64,000 bases of DNA, from the NCBI RefSeq assembly GCF_056746865.1, contig NZ_CM163382.1; one strand, written 5' to 3'. The notes below the pieces were generated by a model. That model did not search any database. It was not told where the DNA came from and was given only the letters and a program-made list of their open reading frames with translations. How positions within the stretch are numbered: the first letter of the stretch is position 1; the number at the start of each line of letters is the position of its first letter. Made by a program: the position numbers and the translations under genes. Shown piece after piece: positions 25,931 through 61,126 of the stretch.

Positions 25931-26782
25931 ATGACTGTTCAAACAAGTAAAAATCCGCAGGTCGATATTGCTGAAGATAATGCATTCTTCCCTTCAGAAT
26001 ATTCGCTTAGCCAATATACCAGTCCTGTCTCTGATCTTGATGGCGTGGACTATCCAAAACCGTATCGCGGTAAACATAAAATTCTGGTGATCGCCGCGGA
26101 CGAACGTTATTTGCCGACCGATAACGGGAAACTGTTCTCGACCGGTAACCATCCGATTGAAACGTTGCTGCCGTTGTATCATCTCCATGCTGCAGGTTTC
26201 GAATTCGAAGTGGCGACCATTTCCGGTCTGATGACCAAGTTTGAATACTGGGCTATGCCGCACAAAGATGAAAAAGTAATGCCATTCTTTGAGCAGCATA
26301 AATCGTTGTTCCGCAATCCGAAGAAACTCGCGGATGTTGTCGCCAGCCTCAACGCTGATAGCGAATATGCAGCAATCTTTGTTCCTGGTGGTCATGGCGC
26401 ACTTATTGGTTTACCTGAAAGCCAGGACGTAGCTGCCGCTTTACAGTGGGCAATCAAAAATGACCGTTTCGTTATCTCCCTTTGCCACGGCCCGGCGGCT
26501 TTTCTGGCGCTTCGCCACGGCGATAACCCACTGAATGGTTATTCCATTTGCGCATTCCCAGACGCCGCAGACAAACAAACGCCAGAGATAGGCTATATGC
26601 CGGGTCATCTCACCTGGTACTTCGGCGAAGAGCTGAAGAAAATGGGCATGAACATTATTAATGACGACATCACTGGGCGAGTACATAAGGACCGTAAAGT
26701 TCTCACCGGCGACAGTCCTTTCGCAGCGAATGCGTTGGGTAAACTGGCGGCGCAGGAAATGCTGGCAGCTTATGCGGGTTAA
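25931..26782 (+). CDS. hchA: Hsp31 glyoxalase / chaperone HchA
   Basis: 283-aa DJ-1/PfpI-type ORF. Confidence 0.93.
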   Translation: MTVQTSKNPQVDIAEDNAFFPSEYSLSQYTSPVSDLDGVDYPKPYRGKHKILVIAADERYLPTDNGKLFSTGNHPIETLLPLYHLHAAGFEFEVATISGLMTKFEYWAMPHKDEKVMPFFEQHKSLFRNPKKLADVVASLNADSEYAAIFVPGGHGALIGLPESQDVAAALQWAIKNDRFVISLCHGPAAFLALRHGDNPLNGYSICAFPDAADKQTPEIGYMPGHLTWYFGEELKKMGMNIINDDITGRVHKDRKVLTGDSPFAANALGKLAAQEMLAAYAG

Positions 26783-43036: not shown

Positions 43037-43191
43037 TCATATTCTCGCCAAAACACTTTTTAATGCCTTTGCGAATTCATCCAGACTTATATTGTCAATT
43101 TTTTGCCCAACGACGACTGACTCCGAAACATCGGCCATTGCGGGCCATCGCGTTTTGTAATCAGCATAAATTGCAACAACGGGAGTATTAT
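43037..43191 (-). pseudogene. yeeL: Displaced 3' end of yeeL (about 51 codons) left of the IS2 insertion
   Basis: Minus-strand frame continues the yeeL frame once IS2 plus one 5-bp duplication (1336 bp) is removed. Confidence 0.55.
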
Positions 43192-43202
43192 TGGATTTGC
43201 CC

Positions 43203-44108
43203 CTATATTTCCAGACACCTGTTATCACTTAACCCATTACTGGCCCGCTGCCGTAGATATTCCCGTGGCGAGCGATAACCCAGTGCACTATGCGGATGCC
43301 ATTCGTTATAATGCTCGAACGCCTCTGCAAGGTTCTTTGCTGCCGTTAACCCGTCTGGTTTAGGCATGATACTGATGTAGTCACGCTTTATCGTTTTCAC
43401 GAAGCTCTCTGCTATGCCGTTACTCTCCGGACTCCGCACCGCCGTGTTCTTCGGTTCAAGCCCCAACATCCGGGCAAACTGCCGTGTTTCATTAGCCCGG
43501 TAGCATGAACCATTATCCGTCAGCCACTCTACTGGAGACGCCGGAAGCTCGTTGCCGAAGCGGCGTTCCACCGCTCCCAGCATTACGTCCTGTACTGTTT
43601 CACTGTCGAAGCCGCCCGTAGTGACTGCCCAGTGCAGTGCCTCACGGTCACAGCAGTCCAGCGCGAACGTGACTCGCAGTTTTTCTCCGTTATCACAGCG
43701 GAACTCGAACCCGTCAGAGCACCATCGTTGATTGCTTTCTTTCACGGCCACTTTGCCAGTATGTGCCCGTTTCGATGGCGGTACAGCGGTTTTTCGCTCA
43801 AGCAACAGCGCATTCTGGCGCATGATCCGGTAAACACGTTTGGCATTGATCGCAGGCATACCATCAAGTTCGGCCTGTCTGCGAAGCAGCGCCCATACCC
43901 GACGATAACCATACGTGGGCAGCTCTCCGATAACATGGTGTATACGGAGAAGCACATCCGTATCATCTGAGTGACGGCTGCGGCGACCATCTTTCCAGTC
44001 ATCGGTTCGTCTGAGAATGACGTGCAACTGCGCACGCGACACCCGGAGACAACGGCTGACTAAGCTTACTCCCCATCCCCGGGCAATAAGGGCGCGTGCG
44101 CTATCCAC
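43203..44108 (-). CDS. insD: IS2 transposase OrfB (InsD)
   Basis: 301-aa ORF with DDE-transposase sequence. Confidence 0.93.
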
Positions 44109-44431
44109 TTTTTTGCACGCCCGTATTCAACGGCTTCTTTAAGGAGTTCATTTTCCATCGTTTTTTTGCCGAGCAGGCGCTGGAGTTCTTTAATCTGCTT
44201 CATGGCAGCAGCAAGTTCAGAGGCAGGAACGACCTGCTCTCCTGCGGCCACAGCAGTAAGACTTCCCTCCTGGTATTGCTTGCGCCAGAGAAATAACTGG
44301 CTGGCTGCCACACCGTGTTGCCGGGCAACAAGGGAGACCGTCATTCCCGGTTCAAAACTCTGCTGAACAATAGCGATCTTTTCCTGTGTAGTACGCCGTC
44401 TGCGTTTCTCCGGTCCTAAGACATCAATCAT
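44066..44431 (-). CDS. insC: IS2 OrfA (InsC)
   Basis: 121-aa product from [18 protein letters not shown]; overlaps insD for -1 frameshifting. Confidence 0.93.
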
Positions 44432-44522
44432 CTGCTCTCCAATGACTAGTCTAAAAACTAGTATTAAGACTATCACTTATTTAAGTGATATTGGTTGTCT
44501 GGAGATTCAGGGGGCCAGTCTA

Positions 44523-45488
44523 ATTATAGGCACTTGCCATATGTAATATTGAGGTGTCAGGAGTTATTGCGATATAAGCATCTTTTATGATTGCTGCTGA
44601 ACGTTTAATCGAGGGTGATAAGGATAAACGGTAGACATTATTATAACAATCCACTAATACCCTGGCTTTATCTTCCCCTTTTGGTCCATGAACGATCACT
44701 ATTGGTATATCTGTTTCACTTTGAATTTTTGCTATTAGATTTTCTGCAATCGATAATGAAAATGTACGTTCCTGCGAGCTACCTTCTAAATTAAGCGCAA
44801 TGTAAGATCCTAACGATCGCATTTCCTCGCGCACCTCATCGAGTACATCCTCACTTAGTGGCAATTCATATATTGGCCTGACTGCTGGAAAACCCGCCTC
44901 ACGCATCATAAATGCCCATGTCATGGGTACAGGAGCCCGGAGATTCTGATCCATCCGGGACGCGTTCTTGCACAAAGGGGAGTAGCACTTCATGGTTAAA
45001 CCAACAACCTGAAAATTCGTTTTTGCTTTTAACTGACTGATAAATATCATCGTTTTCAGGTTCTTTTTACGCATCGCCTCTATACAAAGATCCGGCGTAC
45101 CGTATTGCTGTGTTATGTTCTTTGCTAAATCTTTTATTTCTTTTAATGTTGCGTGATCCTGCATAGTCATTGTGACTAATGTTAATTTAGTCTTTTCAAG
45201 TTTAAGTGCATTAAACACTTCTAAATTAATTGTCGACGTAACAATTAAAAGATGCTTAATTTTATGCAATTCAAGCGCCCGAATAACAGGAAAGATGGCC
45301 ATAGCATCGCCAATCTGGTCGGGAATATGGATAACAACAAACTCTGTTTTTTCAATATTAAAATTATAAGCTTTATAATCGTAGTAACTAAATGCAATAC
45401 GTCTCAACAATGATGCTAAAAACATACCTAACCTCGCCTCCCTACTGGTTATAATGCATTGCAGTCTATCAGACTCATCATGGCGCAA
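44523..45488 (-). pseudogene. yeeL: yeeL, uncharacterised putative transferase, 3' end disrupted by IS2
   Basis: 322-aa ORF whose apparent stop codon lies inside the IS2 terminus. Confidence 0.7.
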
Positions 45489-56575: not shown

Positions 56576-57319
56576 TTATAGCAGTGCCAGCAGGAAGACC
56601 AGTTCACCAAGCTCTATAGCAGCTCCCAGCGTATCGCCGGTTTGCCCGCCCAGCGTACGTTTGAGAAGCTGACCGAGGATGAAAATCGCCACCATCGTCA
56701 CCACCATAGCAGCCACACCATGCATACCCGGCAATAATACGGCAGCAAAAATAGCGGCTAAGCCGAGTGTGACGCAGGTTTGTCGCCCATCAATTTTGCC
56801 AATGAACACATTGCCAAGCCCTTCTTCCCGCGCATAACGATGACGATACATCAATAATGCGGCAGTCCCGCGGCTGACCGCACATGCTGCCGCCAGCGAT
56901 GCAAGGATCGGTTCGCCACGCAGAGCCAACTCGCTTAATACCAGAATCTTTGCCAGTACAACAAAAATCAATGCCAGACCGCCATGGGTGCCTAAACGGC
57001 TATCACGCATGATTTCCAACATGCGATCGCGGCTACGTGCAGAAAATACGCCATCACAGGTATCGGCGAGGCCGTCCAGGTGGAATCCCCCGGTCATCAG
57101 CGCCAGCACAAGTACGCTAAACAGTGCCGCCAGTGGTACGCCACACCATGCCTGCAGCACCATGAAGACCAGCCCGCTAATCGCGCCAAGCAATAATCCA
57201 ATTAAAGGAAAAGTAATAATACCGCGAGAATAATGCTCGAAATCCAGTCCCTGGGACCAGCGACGCGGTACAGGCAGACGCGTAATAAATGAGAGCATCG
57301 CCCAAAATAATTTACTCAT
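56576..57319 (-). CDS. cobS: Cobalamin (5'-phosphate) synthase CobS
   Basis: 247-aa membrane product from [11 protein letters not shown]; ATGA overlap with cobU. Confidence 0.92.
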
Positions 57320-57861
57320 TTGATTTTTACTCCAATACCCGAAACCACCAGCCATACTTCATTTGCCGCAGCGGCCAACTGCTGATTTACCCGCCCGGCA
57401 ATATCACGAAAATGTCGTGCCAGACGACTCTCCGGCACAATCCCCATTCCCACTTCGTTAGTCACTAATACAACCTTTGCGGGGCAACGTTGGCAGGCAG
57501 CAATCAACGACTGAATCTCAGCATTAATCGCCTGTTCCATCGCCTGATAATCCCATTCATCAGGGTCTTTATCGCCGCCATAATCAAACAACAGATTAGT
57601 CACCATTGTGGTAACGCATTCCAGCAACACAACCTCATTCGGGTTAATGTCTGCATGAATTAATTCATCAAGATGTTGCCAGCGCTCCACTGTGCGCCAG
57701 TGCTCCGGGCGGCCTTGCCGATGATGTTCTATCCGTGCAGCCATCTCATCATCAAGGATTTGCGAGGTAGCGATATACAGAACCTGTGAAGAGTCCCCAA
57801 TAAGCGCCTCTGCGTGGCGACTCTTCCCGCTCCGTGCGCCCCCCGTCACCAAAATCATCAT
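57316..57861 (-). CDS. cobU: Adenosylcobinamide kinase / adenosylcobinamide-phosphate guanylyltransferase CobU
   Basis: 181-aa ORF with P-loop GGARSGKS. Confidence 0.93.
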
Positions 57862-59131
57862 ACCGACTCCTGATTCAAATGTATGATGGTATTCATTGAA
57901 CAGAACAATGGATCCCCCACCGTTGCTGACCGCAAAACATTTACGCGATTAATACTGCGCGTAATATAATTAAAAATCCAGCATTCTCAATCCATTACGA
58001 AATAAGATGGCATTACGGAATAGCCAGACTTTCTCGTGTTAACGTCCGACAAAATGTGTCATTGACAGCGGTTTCTGTGGATTGACACATTTCATTCAGA
58101 TAATGAATTAATGCTACTGCCGGACCAACCAGCAAACGGGCATTGTGTTCTGAAATCCAGGCTATTGATTCAACGTCAGCGACAGTTCTGCGCTGTAAAA
58201 GAACTTGTAAAACAACGCAATAGAATTATCCGGAATGGTGGCGACTATGCACTAGAACACCACAATTTCGCTCTCTCGGTAAGGCACTGTCACAGCATTC
58301 AACAGAATGTGACTTGCCAGATTTATTAGCGCCACCAGATGTTTAACCGGGTAACCACGACCCAGTCGGGGATATATTCCATCTTCTCGCTGACATCATC
58401 AAGAATAAAAAGGTTTATCACACTCAGAGCAACGTTCTTCAGCAGGCGGGATAATTCTTCAACATTTAAAAGATGTGTTATTAAAGGCATACAAACTGGA
58501 CGTATTGTATTTTCTTTTGGTGGTTGACCTAAGGTAGCAGTTTATCCTGATGCGCTGAGATTTCTGTAATATCTACGTCAACATTCTCCTCGAATAGAAA
58601 ATGCAGCCCCGGCAAGTGATTCACATTTTTTAACAAAACGTTGTTAGCGTGCCATTTTCAGAAGCTCTCCAAGAAAGCGAATTCTTTTCTCAAATTCTGC
58701 ATTCTCAGACACAGCTTTCTACTCCATGGCAATGGCCCAAATACGAAGTTGCTCAGGATCATTAGTGGTGCTGAGAAGTTAAATAACCATGCGGAGTACC
58801 ACTCGTCATCACGTATTTATATATCATGAAGCTATTGTTGTGTTTTGTACATCAGTAGATGTATTCTGATATACTCCTTTTGCTAGACATAACCTTTCAC
58901 CTGCTTGCAAAGCTTCTGTGTTCTGACATTGCCAAATTGTTGCAATTCTGTATCCAGCCTTCTTTCAGTCATAGCTTCGGGCCGCGATAAGACTCACTGA
59001 TCTGACCCTGATTCCTCTTGCAGACTTTATAGACCAATTAAAATGCAGTTTCTGCAGGTCAACGTCTGACCATCATTGTCATCACTCTGGCCATTAGAGT
59101 AACCTTCTGCATTCATCCTTTTGTAAAAAGT

Positions 59132-59803
59132 TTATAGACTGGCCCCCTGAATCTCCAGACAACCAATATCACTTAAATAAGTGATAGTCCTGATACAAGT
59201 TTTTAGAGTAGTCATTAGTGAACAGATAATTGTTAACTTAGAACCAGTAAAATGCAAACGACGCACCACGCTGGGAAAATCGCTGCTATTCAGCAGAGTT
59301 TTGTACCGAGAATTGTGGCCAGCCACTTATTGCTCTCGCGTAAGCAGGTATCCCCATCGTTTACCAGTCCAGCACATCTTGTGGTCAGGCAGAAGAAGAG
59401 CAAACTGTTACTGGACTCACTGCATGCATGGTGGAGAAAAATGCCACGCTATCCAAAAATCCAGACTGGGAGAATGGTTCAGCTGTGTACTGAATCAGTG
59501 GGGCGCACTCTGTTATTACAGTGTTGACGGTCAGGCGGAGGCAGACATAATGCCGCGGAAAAAGCCCTTTGTGCCATCTGTCTCGGAAATAAAAACTTTA
59601 TGTTCTTCGGCGGCGAGCGCAGTGCACTGTTGTATGGGCTTATCGGCACTTGCCTTCTGAACGACATTGATCCGGAAGCGTATCTGCGCCATATCCTGAG
59701 CGTACTGCCGGAATAACCTTCCAACCGTATTGATGAACTCCTGCCATGGAACGTAGTTCTCACCAATAAATAAGCATCAATATGATTCTCCATTAACGCT
59801 TAC
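59132..59803 (+). mobile_element. Composite IS debris: IS2-like left end with decayed orfA, fused to the 3' end of an IS66-family transposase gene and its GTAAGCG-type terminus
   Basis: 59132..59186 identical to the IS2 left terminus, then a diverged, frameshifted InsC-like stretch; 59550..59775 encodes ...FFGGERSALLYGLIGTCLLNDIDPEAYLRHILSVLPE and, after a frameshift, NRIDELLPWNV; terminus ...CATTAACGCTTAC ends 59803. Confidence 0.7.
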
Positions 59804-59911
59804 CTTTTCTCAGGCTATTTTTGCTTTTTTTTGCTTTTCCCCGCCACTTTATGGTGATTATCACATCAATATACATCGATAGATATTAACGTAACTGAAG
59901 TGAGGTGAAGC

Positions 59912-61126
59912 ATGAAATTTGAACGCCATCATGAAATATTGAAACGACTCAGTAAATTCGGTTCTGTAAAAGTATCCGATCTGTCCAATAGCCTCAATGT
60001 AACGAAAGAAACTATTAGTTCAGATCTTAATGAACTTGCCAGGCTTGGCTATCTGACTCGATGTCATGGCGGTGCTTTTATCGTCCTAGACTCGCTTGAT
60101 ACTATTGCGAAAAATGAAATCGCTTATGCGCTTGAAAATTATGATACAGCCCAGGGAATAAAAAAAGGCCACTCAACTATGAAAAGTCAAGTATGCGTTA
60201 TTGGTTCGTTTAATGTTGATATCATCAGTTATTTGCCGAGGCTTCCCACTATCGGAGAATCGCTTCTGGCAAGTAATTTTATATTTTCACCGGGGGGAAA
60301 AGGCTGTAACCAGGCGCTGGCAGCAAGCTTTGCCGATACTGATGTTTATTTCATAACAAAAGTAGGTACAGATCACTTTAGTGATTATGCGATCAACTTT
60401 ATGAATTCGTCTAAGATTTATAAAAGTATAATTTATCAAACGAAAGAAACGCAAACCGGAACTGCCACGATCCTTGTTAATGAAGGTACTGGCGATAATG
60501 TTATTGCGATCTATCCCGGTGCCAACATGACAATGTCGTCCGATGAAATAACTATTCAGAAAGAAGCGATTATTAATTCTGATGTCATACTTCTGCAGCT
60601 CGAAACAAATTATACCGCTCTGCAACAAGCGATCACATTGGCGCAAAAAAACAGTATCCCGGTCATTATTAACCCGGCACCCTATAATGATATCGTCAAC
60701 GAACTTATTCAGGATGTTGATTATATCACCCCCAATGAAACAGAAGCTGGTTTACTGTCCGGCATAGACGTACACGATCTTGAATCAGCTAAACGAGCTG
60801 CAGAAGCTATCCACAATAAAGGGGTAAAAAACACGGTTATCACGCTCGGTAGCAAGGGCTCGCTCGCATTTGATGGCAAAAAATTCATTCATTCGCCAGC
60901 GTTTCCAGCGGTCGTTAAAAATACGGCAGGAGCCGGGGATGCGTTTAACGGCTCTCTGGCATCAGGACTTGCGAAAGGAAAATCACTGGAATCAGCACTG
61001 TGTTATGCCAGCGCCTTTGCATCCCTAGCGGTGGAGACAAGCAATGCTTCCGACATGCCTGAACATGAATCTGTGATACATCGAATTCAGAGTATACATT
61101 ATCAGCAAACTATTTTTACGCATTAA
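59912..61126 (+). CDS. Fusion protein: N-terminal DeoR-type HTH regulator domain plus C-terminal PfkB/ribokinase-family carbohydrate kinase
   Basis: 404-aa ORF; HTH region VKVSDLSNSLNVTKETISSDLNEL; kinase motifs GGKGCNQA and TAGAGDAFNG; RBS GAGGTGAAG before ATG. Confidence 0.75.
   Translation: MKFERHHEILKRLSKFGSVKVSDLSNSLNVTKETISSDLNELARLGYLTRCHGGAFIVLDSLDTIAKNEIAYALENYDTAQGIKKGHSTMKSQVCVIGSFNVDIISYLPRLPTIGESLLASNFIFSPGGKGCNQALAASFADTDVYFITKVGTDHFSDYAINFMNSSKIYKSIIYQTKETQTGTATILVNEGTGDNVIAIYPGANMTMSSDEITIQKEAIINSDVILLQLETNYTALQQAITLAQKNSIPVIINPAPYNDIVNELIQDVDYITPNETEAGLLSGIDVHDLESAKRAAEAIHNKGVKNTVITLGSKGSLAFDGKKFIHSPAFPAVVKNTAGAGDAFNGSLASGLAKGKSLESALCYASAFASLAVETSNASDMPEHESVIHRIQSIHYQQTIFTH

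Follow-up and report, generated by a model that had tools for sequence, protein, structure and literature searches.

In step I of IS2 transposition, the right inverted repeat (IRR) serves as the sole donor and the left inverted repeat (IRL) as the recipient, with a spacer of 1 bp in 90% of events; the IRL is 42 bp long, and the OrfA operator is located at IS2 positions 39-48 (PMC3299598). In ExPEC, the island that flanks cobU is PAI-cobU, with the heme receptor Hma as a marker (PMC7545054). The locus described here is a mosaic of IS2-like and IS66-family sequence that is bounded on the left by a cobU-side flank and on the right by an accessory cluster with a PfkB kinase.

The window, that is, the whole stretch of DNA that was analysed, comprises 64,000 nucleotides of contig NZ_CM163382.1 and represents an E. 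coli chromosome. We have high confidence that positions 59135-59803 are inert insertion-sequence wreckage, taking their composition, decay, inheritance and status as a deletion derivative together as one joint claim. The features on which the description relies were as follows.

43192-44522, minus strand: intact IS2 of 1,331 bp, used as the reference copy, with the target site duplication (TSD) ATTAT at 43187-43191 and 44523-44527
57316-57861, minus strand: cobU, with cobS, cobT, ldtA and tRNA-Asn genes to its left
58490-59134, no strand assigned: conserved cobU-side flank, homologous to K-12, SK1144 and other layouts up to 59134 (±2 bp), exactly where the IS end begins
59135-59803, plus strand: scar core, consisting of an IS2-type left end, an IS2-like body, a 14-bp filler and an IS66-family 3' end
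59135-59189, plus strand: IS2-type left end, made up of the 42-bp IRL (59135-59176) and 13 further bases, identical to IS2 at 55 of 55 bases
59190-59346, plus strand: IS2-like sequence covering the leader and the 5' portion of orfA, collinear with IS2 positions 56-246 and identical at 122 of 157 bases (77.7%)
59252-59527, plus strand: accidental open reading frame (ORF) of 91 aa across the junction, matching no Pfam family and unannotated in RefSeq genomes
59347-59360, no strand assigned: 14-bp filler GGTATCCCCATCGT, which aligns to neither IS2 nor ISEc23 and joins the two IS fragments
59361-59773, plus strand: 3' fragment of an IS66-family tnpC, roughly the last quarter of the gene (~410 bp)
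59774-59803, plus strand: IS66 right terminal region of the GTAAGCG type, ending ...TTAACGCTTAC at 59803

The left end of IS2, TAGACTGG..., opens at 59135. The initial annotation had placed the start of the mosaic at 59132, but positions 59132-59134 (TTA) belong to the flank; the rest of its coordinates stood. When 59135-59189 were compared with the window's own IS2 (44522 down to 44468), all 55 bases agreed and the first mismatch fell at IS2 position 56, which bears out the claim that the first 55 bp are identical to the left terminus of IS2. This end takes in the OrfA-operator and P_IRL region. The alignment to the resident IS2 that had been proposed for quantifying divergence thus gave no change in 55 positions and then 35 changes in 157. 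The second part of it contained 34 gap columns, with one base absent at about 59279/59280 and 33 bp absent around 59303-59309, and the position of the orfA start codon (59226-59228) read ATA, so that the orfA-like part had been correctly described as diverged and frameshifted. By alignment, IS2 homology could be traced to 59346, while self-comparison of the window recovered only 59135-59313.

Within the IS2-like fragment, the orfA-like frame covered the first ~55 codons only, and the IS3-family arrangement, with orfA and orfB yielding a DDE transposase through a -1 frameshift, is not present: neither orfB homology nor a DDE domain was detected in the fragment, and neither a second inverted repeat nor a target duplication was found for it where it passes into IS66 sequence. 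The repaired OrfA-like peptide gave no match in Pfam. Isoforms in the ISfinder convention are about 95% identical or more. Judged by near-identity of the body (77.7%), the fragment falls outside IS2; judged by the 42-bp outer left inverted repeat, it falls within IS2. Relatives were sought in a sample of 5,426 complete E. coli genomes and 72,556 plasmids. The genomes returned either the scar itself (>95%) or IS2 (~77%) and no closer intact relative of the body, the plasmids likewise held no closer intact copy of it, and two exact-pattern scans of 100,044 species-representative genomes for the IS2 relative produced zero matches. Positions 59190-59346 come from an unnamed and apparently extinct relative of IS2 (IS3 family, IS2 group), in keeping with the earlier suggestion of a relative of IS2 and not a piece of the resident copy. 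That resident IS2 lies 15 kb from the scar and could supply IS2 transposase in trans. Its insertion site is the 3' end of an ORF (44520-45488, minus strand) whose position corresponds to that of the glycosyltransferase family 9 gene beside shiA in SK1144.

To the right of the filler, positions 59361-59803 aligned to the 3' end of tnpC and the right end of ISEc23, with 372 of 431 bases identical (86.3%) over 59373-59803 and BLAST E-values down to 1e-128 for the IS66 part. The C-terminal peptide matched PF13817, the IS66 C-terminal element (E = 4.2e-16), while the DDE catalytic part was absent and the frame was broken; the peptides quoted in the initial annotation as the 3' end of an IS66-family transposase gene are indeed encoded here. 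Four deletions were found in the tnpC fragment, one of 4 bp after 59427, two of 1 bp each after 59453 and 59546, and one of 12 bp after 59607. A premature TAA stands at 59714-59716 (TGG>TAA), the original tnpC stop being located at 59771-59773. At 59803, ...CCATTAACGCTTAC is the reverse complement of GTAAGCGTTAATGG and aligns with the right end of ISEc23, so that the IS66-family terminal inverted repeat 5'-GTAAGCG is present and the terminus ends where it had been reported to end. To the right of 59803, the window agreed in sequence with the other aligned layout, and upstream of 59361 both tnpA and tnpB were absent from the window. The left end of the IS66-family element is gone, and with it the place where one copy of the family's 8-bp target duplication would lie. 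In the 5,426 E. coli genomes, the IS66 part matched the scar or else ISEc23/IS682 at ~83%, and the plasmids behaved alike. Both fragments represent relatives, of IS2 and of IS66, that have no intact copy in these genomes.

An IS66-family tnpB pseudogene with about the first 55 nt of tnpC was observed in DETEC-P649 (positions 12430-12790 of locus L006), 11.5 kb upstream of the tnpC 3' remnant and in the same orientation. In this strain, the dgo and hypT-aspA blocks lie between the two IS66 pieces together with the IS2-like remnant, and both pieces may derive from a single IS66-family element.

The scar has thus decayed through loss of the start codon, through frameshifts and deletions, and through a premature stop. 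In homologous genomes, PGAP had annotated both pieces as transposase pseudogenes, one of the IS3 and one of the IS66 family, incomplete and frameshifted, and IS debris at an island border is of an ordinary and already annotated kind.

The IS2-like::IS66 core was present in about 2,300 of the 5,426 complete E. coli genomes. A 901-bp query (59000-59900) was 100% identical in many chromosomes and at least 80% covered in 1,660 genomes. The same IS2-like::IS66 junction was seen in DETEC-P649, 13C1079T, MS 119-7, ESBLEC_HM24, MS20645 and SK1144, and the sequence to the left of it came in four layouts.

Layout W (the window): cobU-side flank directly against the IS tip; spanned in 680 genomes
Layout Y: ...yaiO... 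ending in CTTTATATCTCTC and joined to TAGACAGG...; 833-838 genomes, e.g. SK1144 and Nissle 1917
Layout P: ...aspA... ending in GTTCC and joined to TAGGCTGG...; ~50-kb island of DETEC-P649 and a few IncF plasmids
Layout K: yoeA fragment joined at IRL position 14; K-12 and MS 119-7

Compared with IS2, the end in layout P differs at positions 4, 27, 28 and 31 and has 12 bp missing. K-12 has suffered a further loss from 59351 to the inside of yeeP, and this deletion begins within the filler after 59350. Among E. coli, the alleles of the scar diverged from each other by 1.2-4.5%. The IS2-like::IS66 junction is old and common to every layout examined. Since no layout is free of the truncation, the IS2 relative was dead before the deletion of layout W took place. 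The scar is inherited and is not a set of events in this strain, its exact left junction being present in 680 genomes. Repeated insertion and deletion at the junction, as proposed initially, was hence evident across strains, in the form of the four left layouts and of extra IS2, ISEc45, IS1 and IS3-family copies, but not in this strain. A known composite element matching the whole segment, which would have spoken against a mosaic, was looked for as well, and none was found from end to end; the end-to-end matches came from the same chromosomal locus and from a few plasmids with a larger copy of the island block, all of them the same scar elsewhere, with no independent mobile copy.

In other strains, additional insertions of IS2, ISEc45, IS1 and IS3-family elements were located in or beside the scar. 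Strain 2020N21-246 (L013) had IS2 and ISVsa5 inside the IS66 remnant, and ISEc45 was found there in L014 (3433-4566). The scar goes on gathering new IS copies. In DETEC-P649 (L005 5264-5990), a ~720-bp IS3-family fragment, whose OrfA-like peptides presumably resemble IS911, lies in the IS66 remnant after the equivalent of 59372; P-type strains and some of the K-type strains have this fragment, and the window does not. The P-type block, comprising an MFS transporter, hypT, a racemase, a dicarboxylate transporter, aspA, the IS2-like remnant and the IS66 remnant, was carried by pMTY9754_IncFIB-I (L009) and by three similar conjugative IncFIB/IncI plasmids, which indicates that part of the chromosomal island has moved to or from plasmids. 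The mosaic also appeared at 100% identity at 26104-26772 of NZ_CP079635.1, labelled as a 1.04-Mb Klebsiella pneumoniae plasmid, which is unexpected for this species and size; the record may be misassigned or hybrid. The literature on yoeD/yoeA yielded nothing useful on the scar.

The cobU-side flank (query positions 1-656/657) matched K-12 and many other genomes at 99.7%. After ...AAAAAGTTTAT, K-12 and SK1144 run on with sequence other than that of the window; in both, the flank (58480-59134) leads on to the sequence upstream of the receptor gene yoeA/hma, and by annotation DETEC-P649 has the same gene order at the flank. Since the flank runs on to yoeA/hma in other layouts, the adjacency of flank and hma is ancestral and layout W is derived. 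In SK1144, the end of the flank and the tip of the IS were separated by 9,242 bp (L016 2335-11576), and 833 genomes had the same arrangement. This interval contains genes for a TonB-dependent receptor, ibrBA-like proteins, a PIG-L deacetylase, yaiP, an acetyltransferase and yaiO; the receptor (yoeA in K-12) we take to be Hma of the PAI-cobU island. The window and 679 other genomes are deletion derivatives, and the deletion stops exactly at the outermost base of the IS end. It explains why the window strain is without the Hma, ibrAB and yaiOP that 833 genomes carry here. Accordingly, the cobU-flanking island of this strain is bordered on its left by a deletion scar, with little import beyond annotation.

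It had been claimed that the mosaic marks the junction between the flank of the cob operon and the accessory cluster. The position was right, but the left junction is not the original border, being that of the secondary 9.2-kb deletion. Between cobU and the conserved flank (58013-58490), the annotation of homologous genomes places a truncated cobalamin-biosynthesis (cbi) pseudogene and an IS4-family transposase fragment; the true breakpoint of the cob operon is about 0.8-1 kb to the left of the scar, with this IS4-family fragment representing a third IS family. Elsewhere in the window, one tRNA-Ser and four tRNA-Asn genes were located between 33564 and 54432. Only 15 kb separate the first tRNA-Asn gene from the second, so the ~30-kb yersiniabactin island, which SK1144 has in the same neighbourhood, cannot sit between them.

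We infer, with a slight lean in its favor, that the tip-precise deletion of layout W needed a genuine IS2, because it stops precisely at the tip after the IS2 relative had lost its transposase and right end. By one route, an IS2 inserted at the flank site would have recombined with the identical or near-identical 55-bp end. By the other, IS2 transposase would have taken the orphan left end as a recipient and joined an IS2 right end to its outer side at a distance of 1 bp, with later loss of the IS2 body. Strain 13C1079T (L010 3301-4645) has an intact IS2 at 99 bp beyond the end of the flank, in which the right end ...GGGGCAAATCCA is followed by C and then by TAGGCTGG...; no 5-bp target duplication was found at this junction between IS2 and remnant. 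The spacer base equals the one bordering the remnant in DETEC-P649 (layout P), and the island between the IS2 and the left end of the remnant is deleted. The junction looks like the expected step-I-type product with a heterologous, decayed recipient end, and 13C1079T offers a natural example of an intact IS2 reacting with the end of a decayed relative.

Further IS2 copies were found close to this end. ESBLEC_HM24 and MS20645 carry independent IS2 insertions, with the TSDs GGTAT and ACCGG, at 13 and 24 bp upstream of the Y-type end. These two copies (L014 1376-2712 and L015 1369-2723) are simple insertions in the same orientation as the remnant, and they may represent IR-targeted insertion. Within 30 bp, the genome-wide density would predict ~0.05 IS2 copies, against the three observed (P ~2e-5, or P = 0.007 when intergenic tolerance was weighted 8-fold), an estimate that rests on three genomes and a crude genome-wide density. 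In LWY24 and KE51, IS2 is located a few hundred bp to the right of the flank end, again in the same orientation. A chimeric query that joined 200 bp of flank to 300 bp of IS2 detected only nearby insertions, and no complete IS2 at the exact flank site, in the 5,426 genomes. The broader proposal that the orphan end is a live substrate of IS2 transposase from resident copies, serving as a recipient end or as a target of insertion, and a recurrent hot spot for tip-precise trimming of the cobU island is tentative, and we lean against it. If it were true, the 9.2-kb deletion that removed hma, ibrBA and yaiOP from 680 genomes would count among such events. The comparison of strains also hints that an IS end left on its own can go on remodelling island borders.

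How the 55 identical bases arose was considered separately. Three points favour their having been swapped in from a genuine IS2, namely the abrupt drop of identity from 100% to 78%, the diverged end of the P allele and the tip-precise rearrangements at this place. Four points speak for an end native to the IS2 relative. The end recurs (54 of 55) in another context, in the Y allele. With IS2 as the outgroup the differences of P look derived, the P/K lineage having five of the seven derived changes in the body. The alleles differed at 4 of 44 positions in the IRL and at 5 of 157 in the body, an excess that was not significant (P = 0.11). IRL position 6 (T in the window, A in the 833 yaiO-type genomes) was tried as a marker of IS2 ancestry and rejected as non-diagnostic, since the P-type allele has T as well. 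Other candidates were also rejected. The K-12 junction had suggested that the end of the IS2 relative starts at TGAATCTCC, but DETEC-P649 has a full diverged end, TAGGCTGG...; and an inversion between the K-12 yoeA::IS2 and the remnant, considered as the source of a hybrid, was dismissed on the ground that the flanks do not match.

The identity profile also bears on whether 59135-59346 might be a decayed IS2 itself, in which the first 55 bp escaped mutation by chance. The alignment is collinear and in register, as such an origin would predict, but a perfect run of 55 bp followed by 35 changes in 157 has a probability of about 9e-7 at a uniform identity of 77.7%; the 22% divergence far exceeds the 1.2-4.5% among alleles of the scar, and the substitutions are evenly spread, as between related IS species. 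The profile effectively refutes this explanation, which we find scarcely credible, and an origin from a separate IS2 relative is retained. For the junction between flank and IRL, the rival to a genuine IS2 is an ordinary illegitimate deletion of 9.2 kb that ended at the tip by chance. The T in GTTTA-T-AGAC can be assigned to either side of the junction, which gives 1 bp of microhomology; an intermediate with IS2 at the flank site was not found in the genomes searched; and the yoeA junction of the K-12 type, at IRL position 14, demonstrates a deletion here that missed the tip. Against this, an endpoint within ±1 bp of the tip is improbable among the kilobases available, and IS2 demonstrably reacts with, and inserts beside, this end in other strains. 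We therefore consider a chance deletion unlikely and prefer the participation of a genuine IS2.

Inertness of the mosaic has a rival as well, according to which it functions today, either through a chimeric 91-aa protein or through P_IRL and the OrfA operator driving the PfkB cluster. The ORF at 59252-59527 does span the junction, the 55-bp end includes the region of the IS2 promoter together with the OrfA site, and a retained promoter/operator might conceivably cause read-through in the direction of the PfkB-family gene at 59912, which has the same orientation; the sequence is, moreover, 100% conserved in many genomes. However, the ORF is not a gene: it has neither a family match nor an annotation, and indels between alleles break any frame. 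Promoter-like sites numbered 3, which is not above the 1.7 ± 1.2 in shuffled sequence, with none of them in the IRL; an Rfam scan of the region gave no match; and the conservation is explained by recent common descent. A present-day function is thus very improbable, and we hold to the reading of the mosaic as inert debris.

Compared with IS2, the scar has an identical outer 55 bp, and its next bases are collinear with the leader and orfA. Unlike IS2, it keeps only ~210 bp and is without a start codon, orfB, the DDE domain, the right end and a target duplication. With ISEc23/IS682, and also ISEc47, it shares the C-terminal region of tnpC (PF13817), the position of the stop and the right terminus GTAAGCG, but at the nucleotide level it is 81-86% identical to them, lacks tnpA, tnpB and three quarters of its tnpC, and has accumulated four deletions and a premature stop. 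The junction in 13C1079T resembles the IRR-IRL junction of the IS2 minicircle or (IS2)2 in that the right end abuts the left end of the remnant across a one-base spacer, whereas the window holds an orphan left end only, and its link to the deletion is by inference. With respect to PAI-cobU and CP4-44, the location and gene content are alike, K-12 holding yoeA (interrupted by IS2), the same remnant and yeeP; the window differs in being without the 9.2-kb part from hma to yaiO, so that its island begins at the IS scar.
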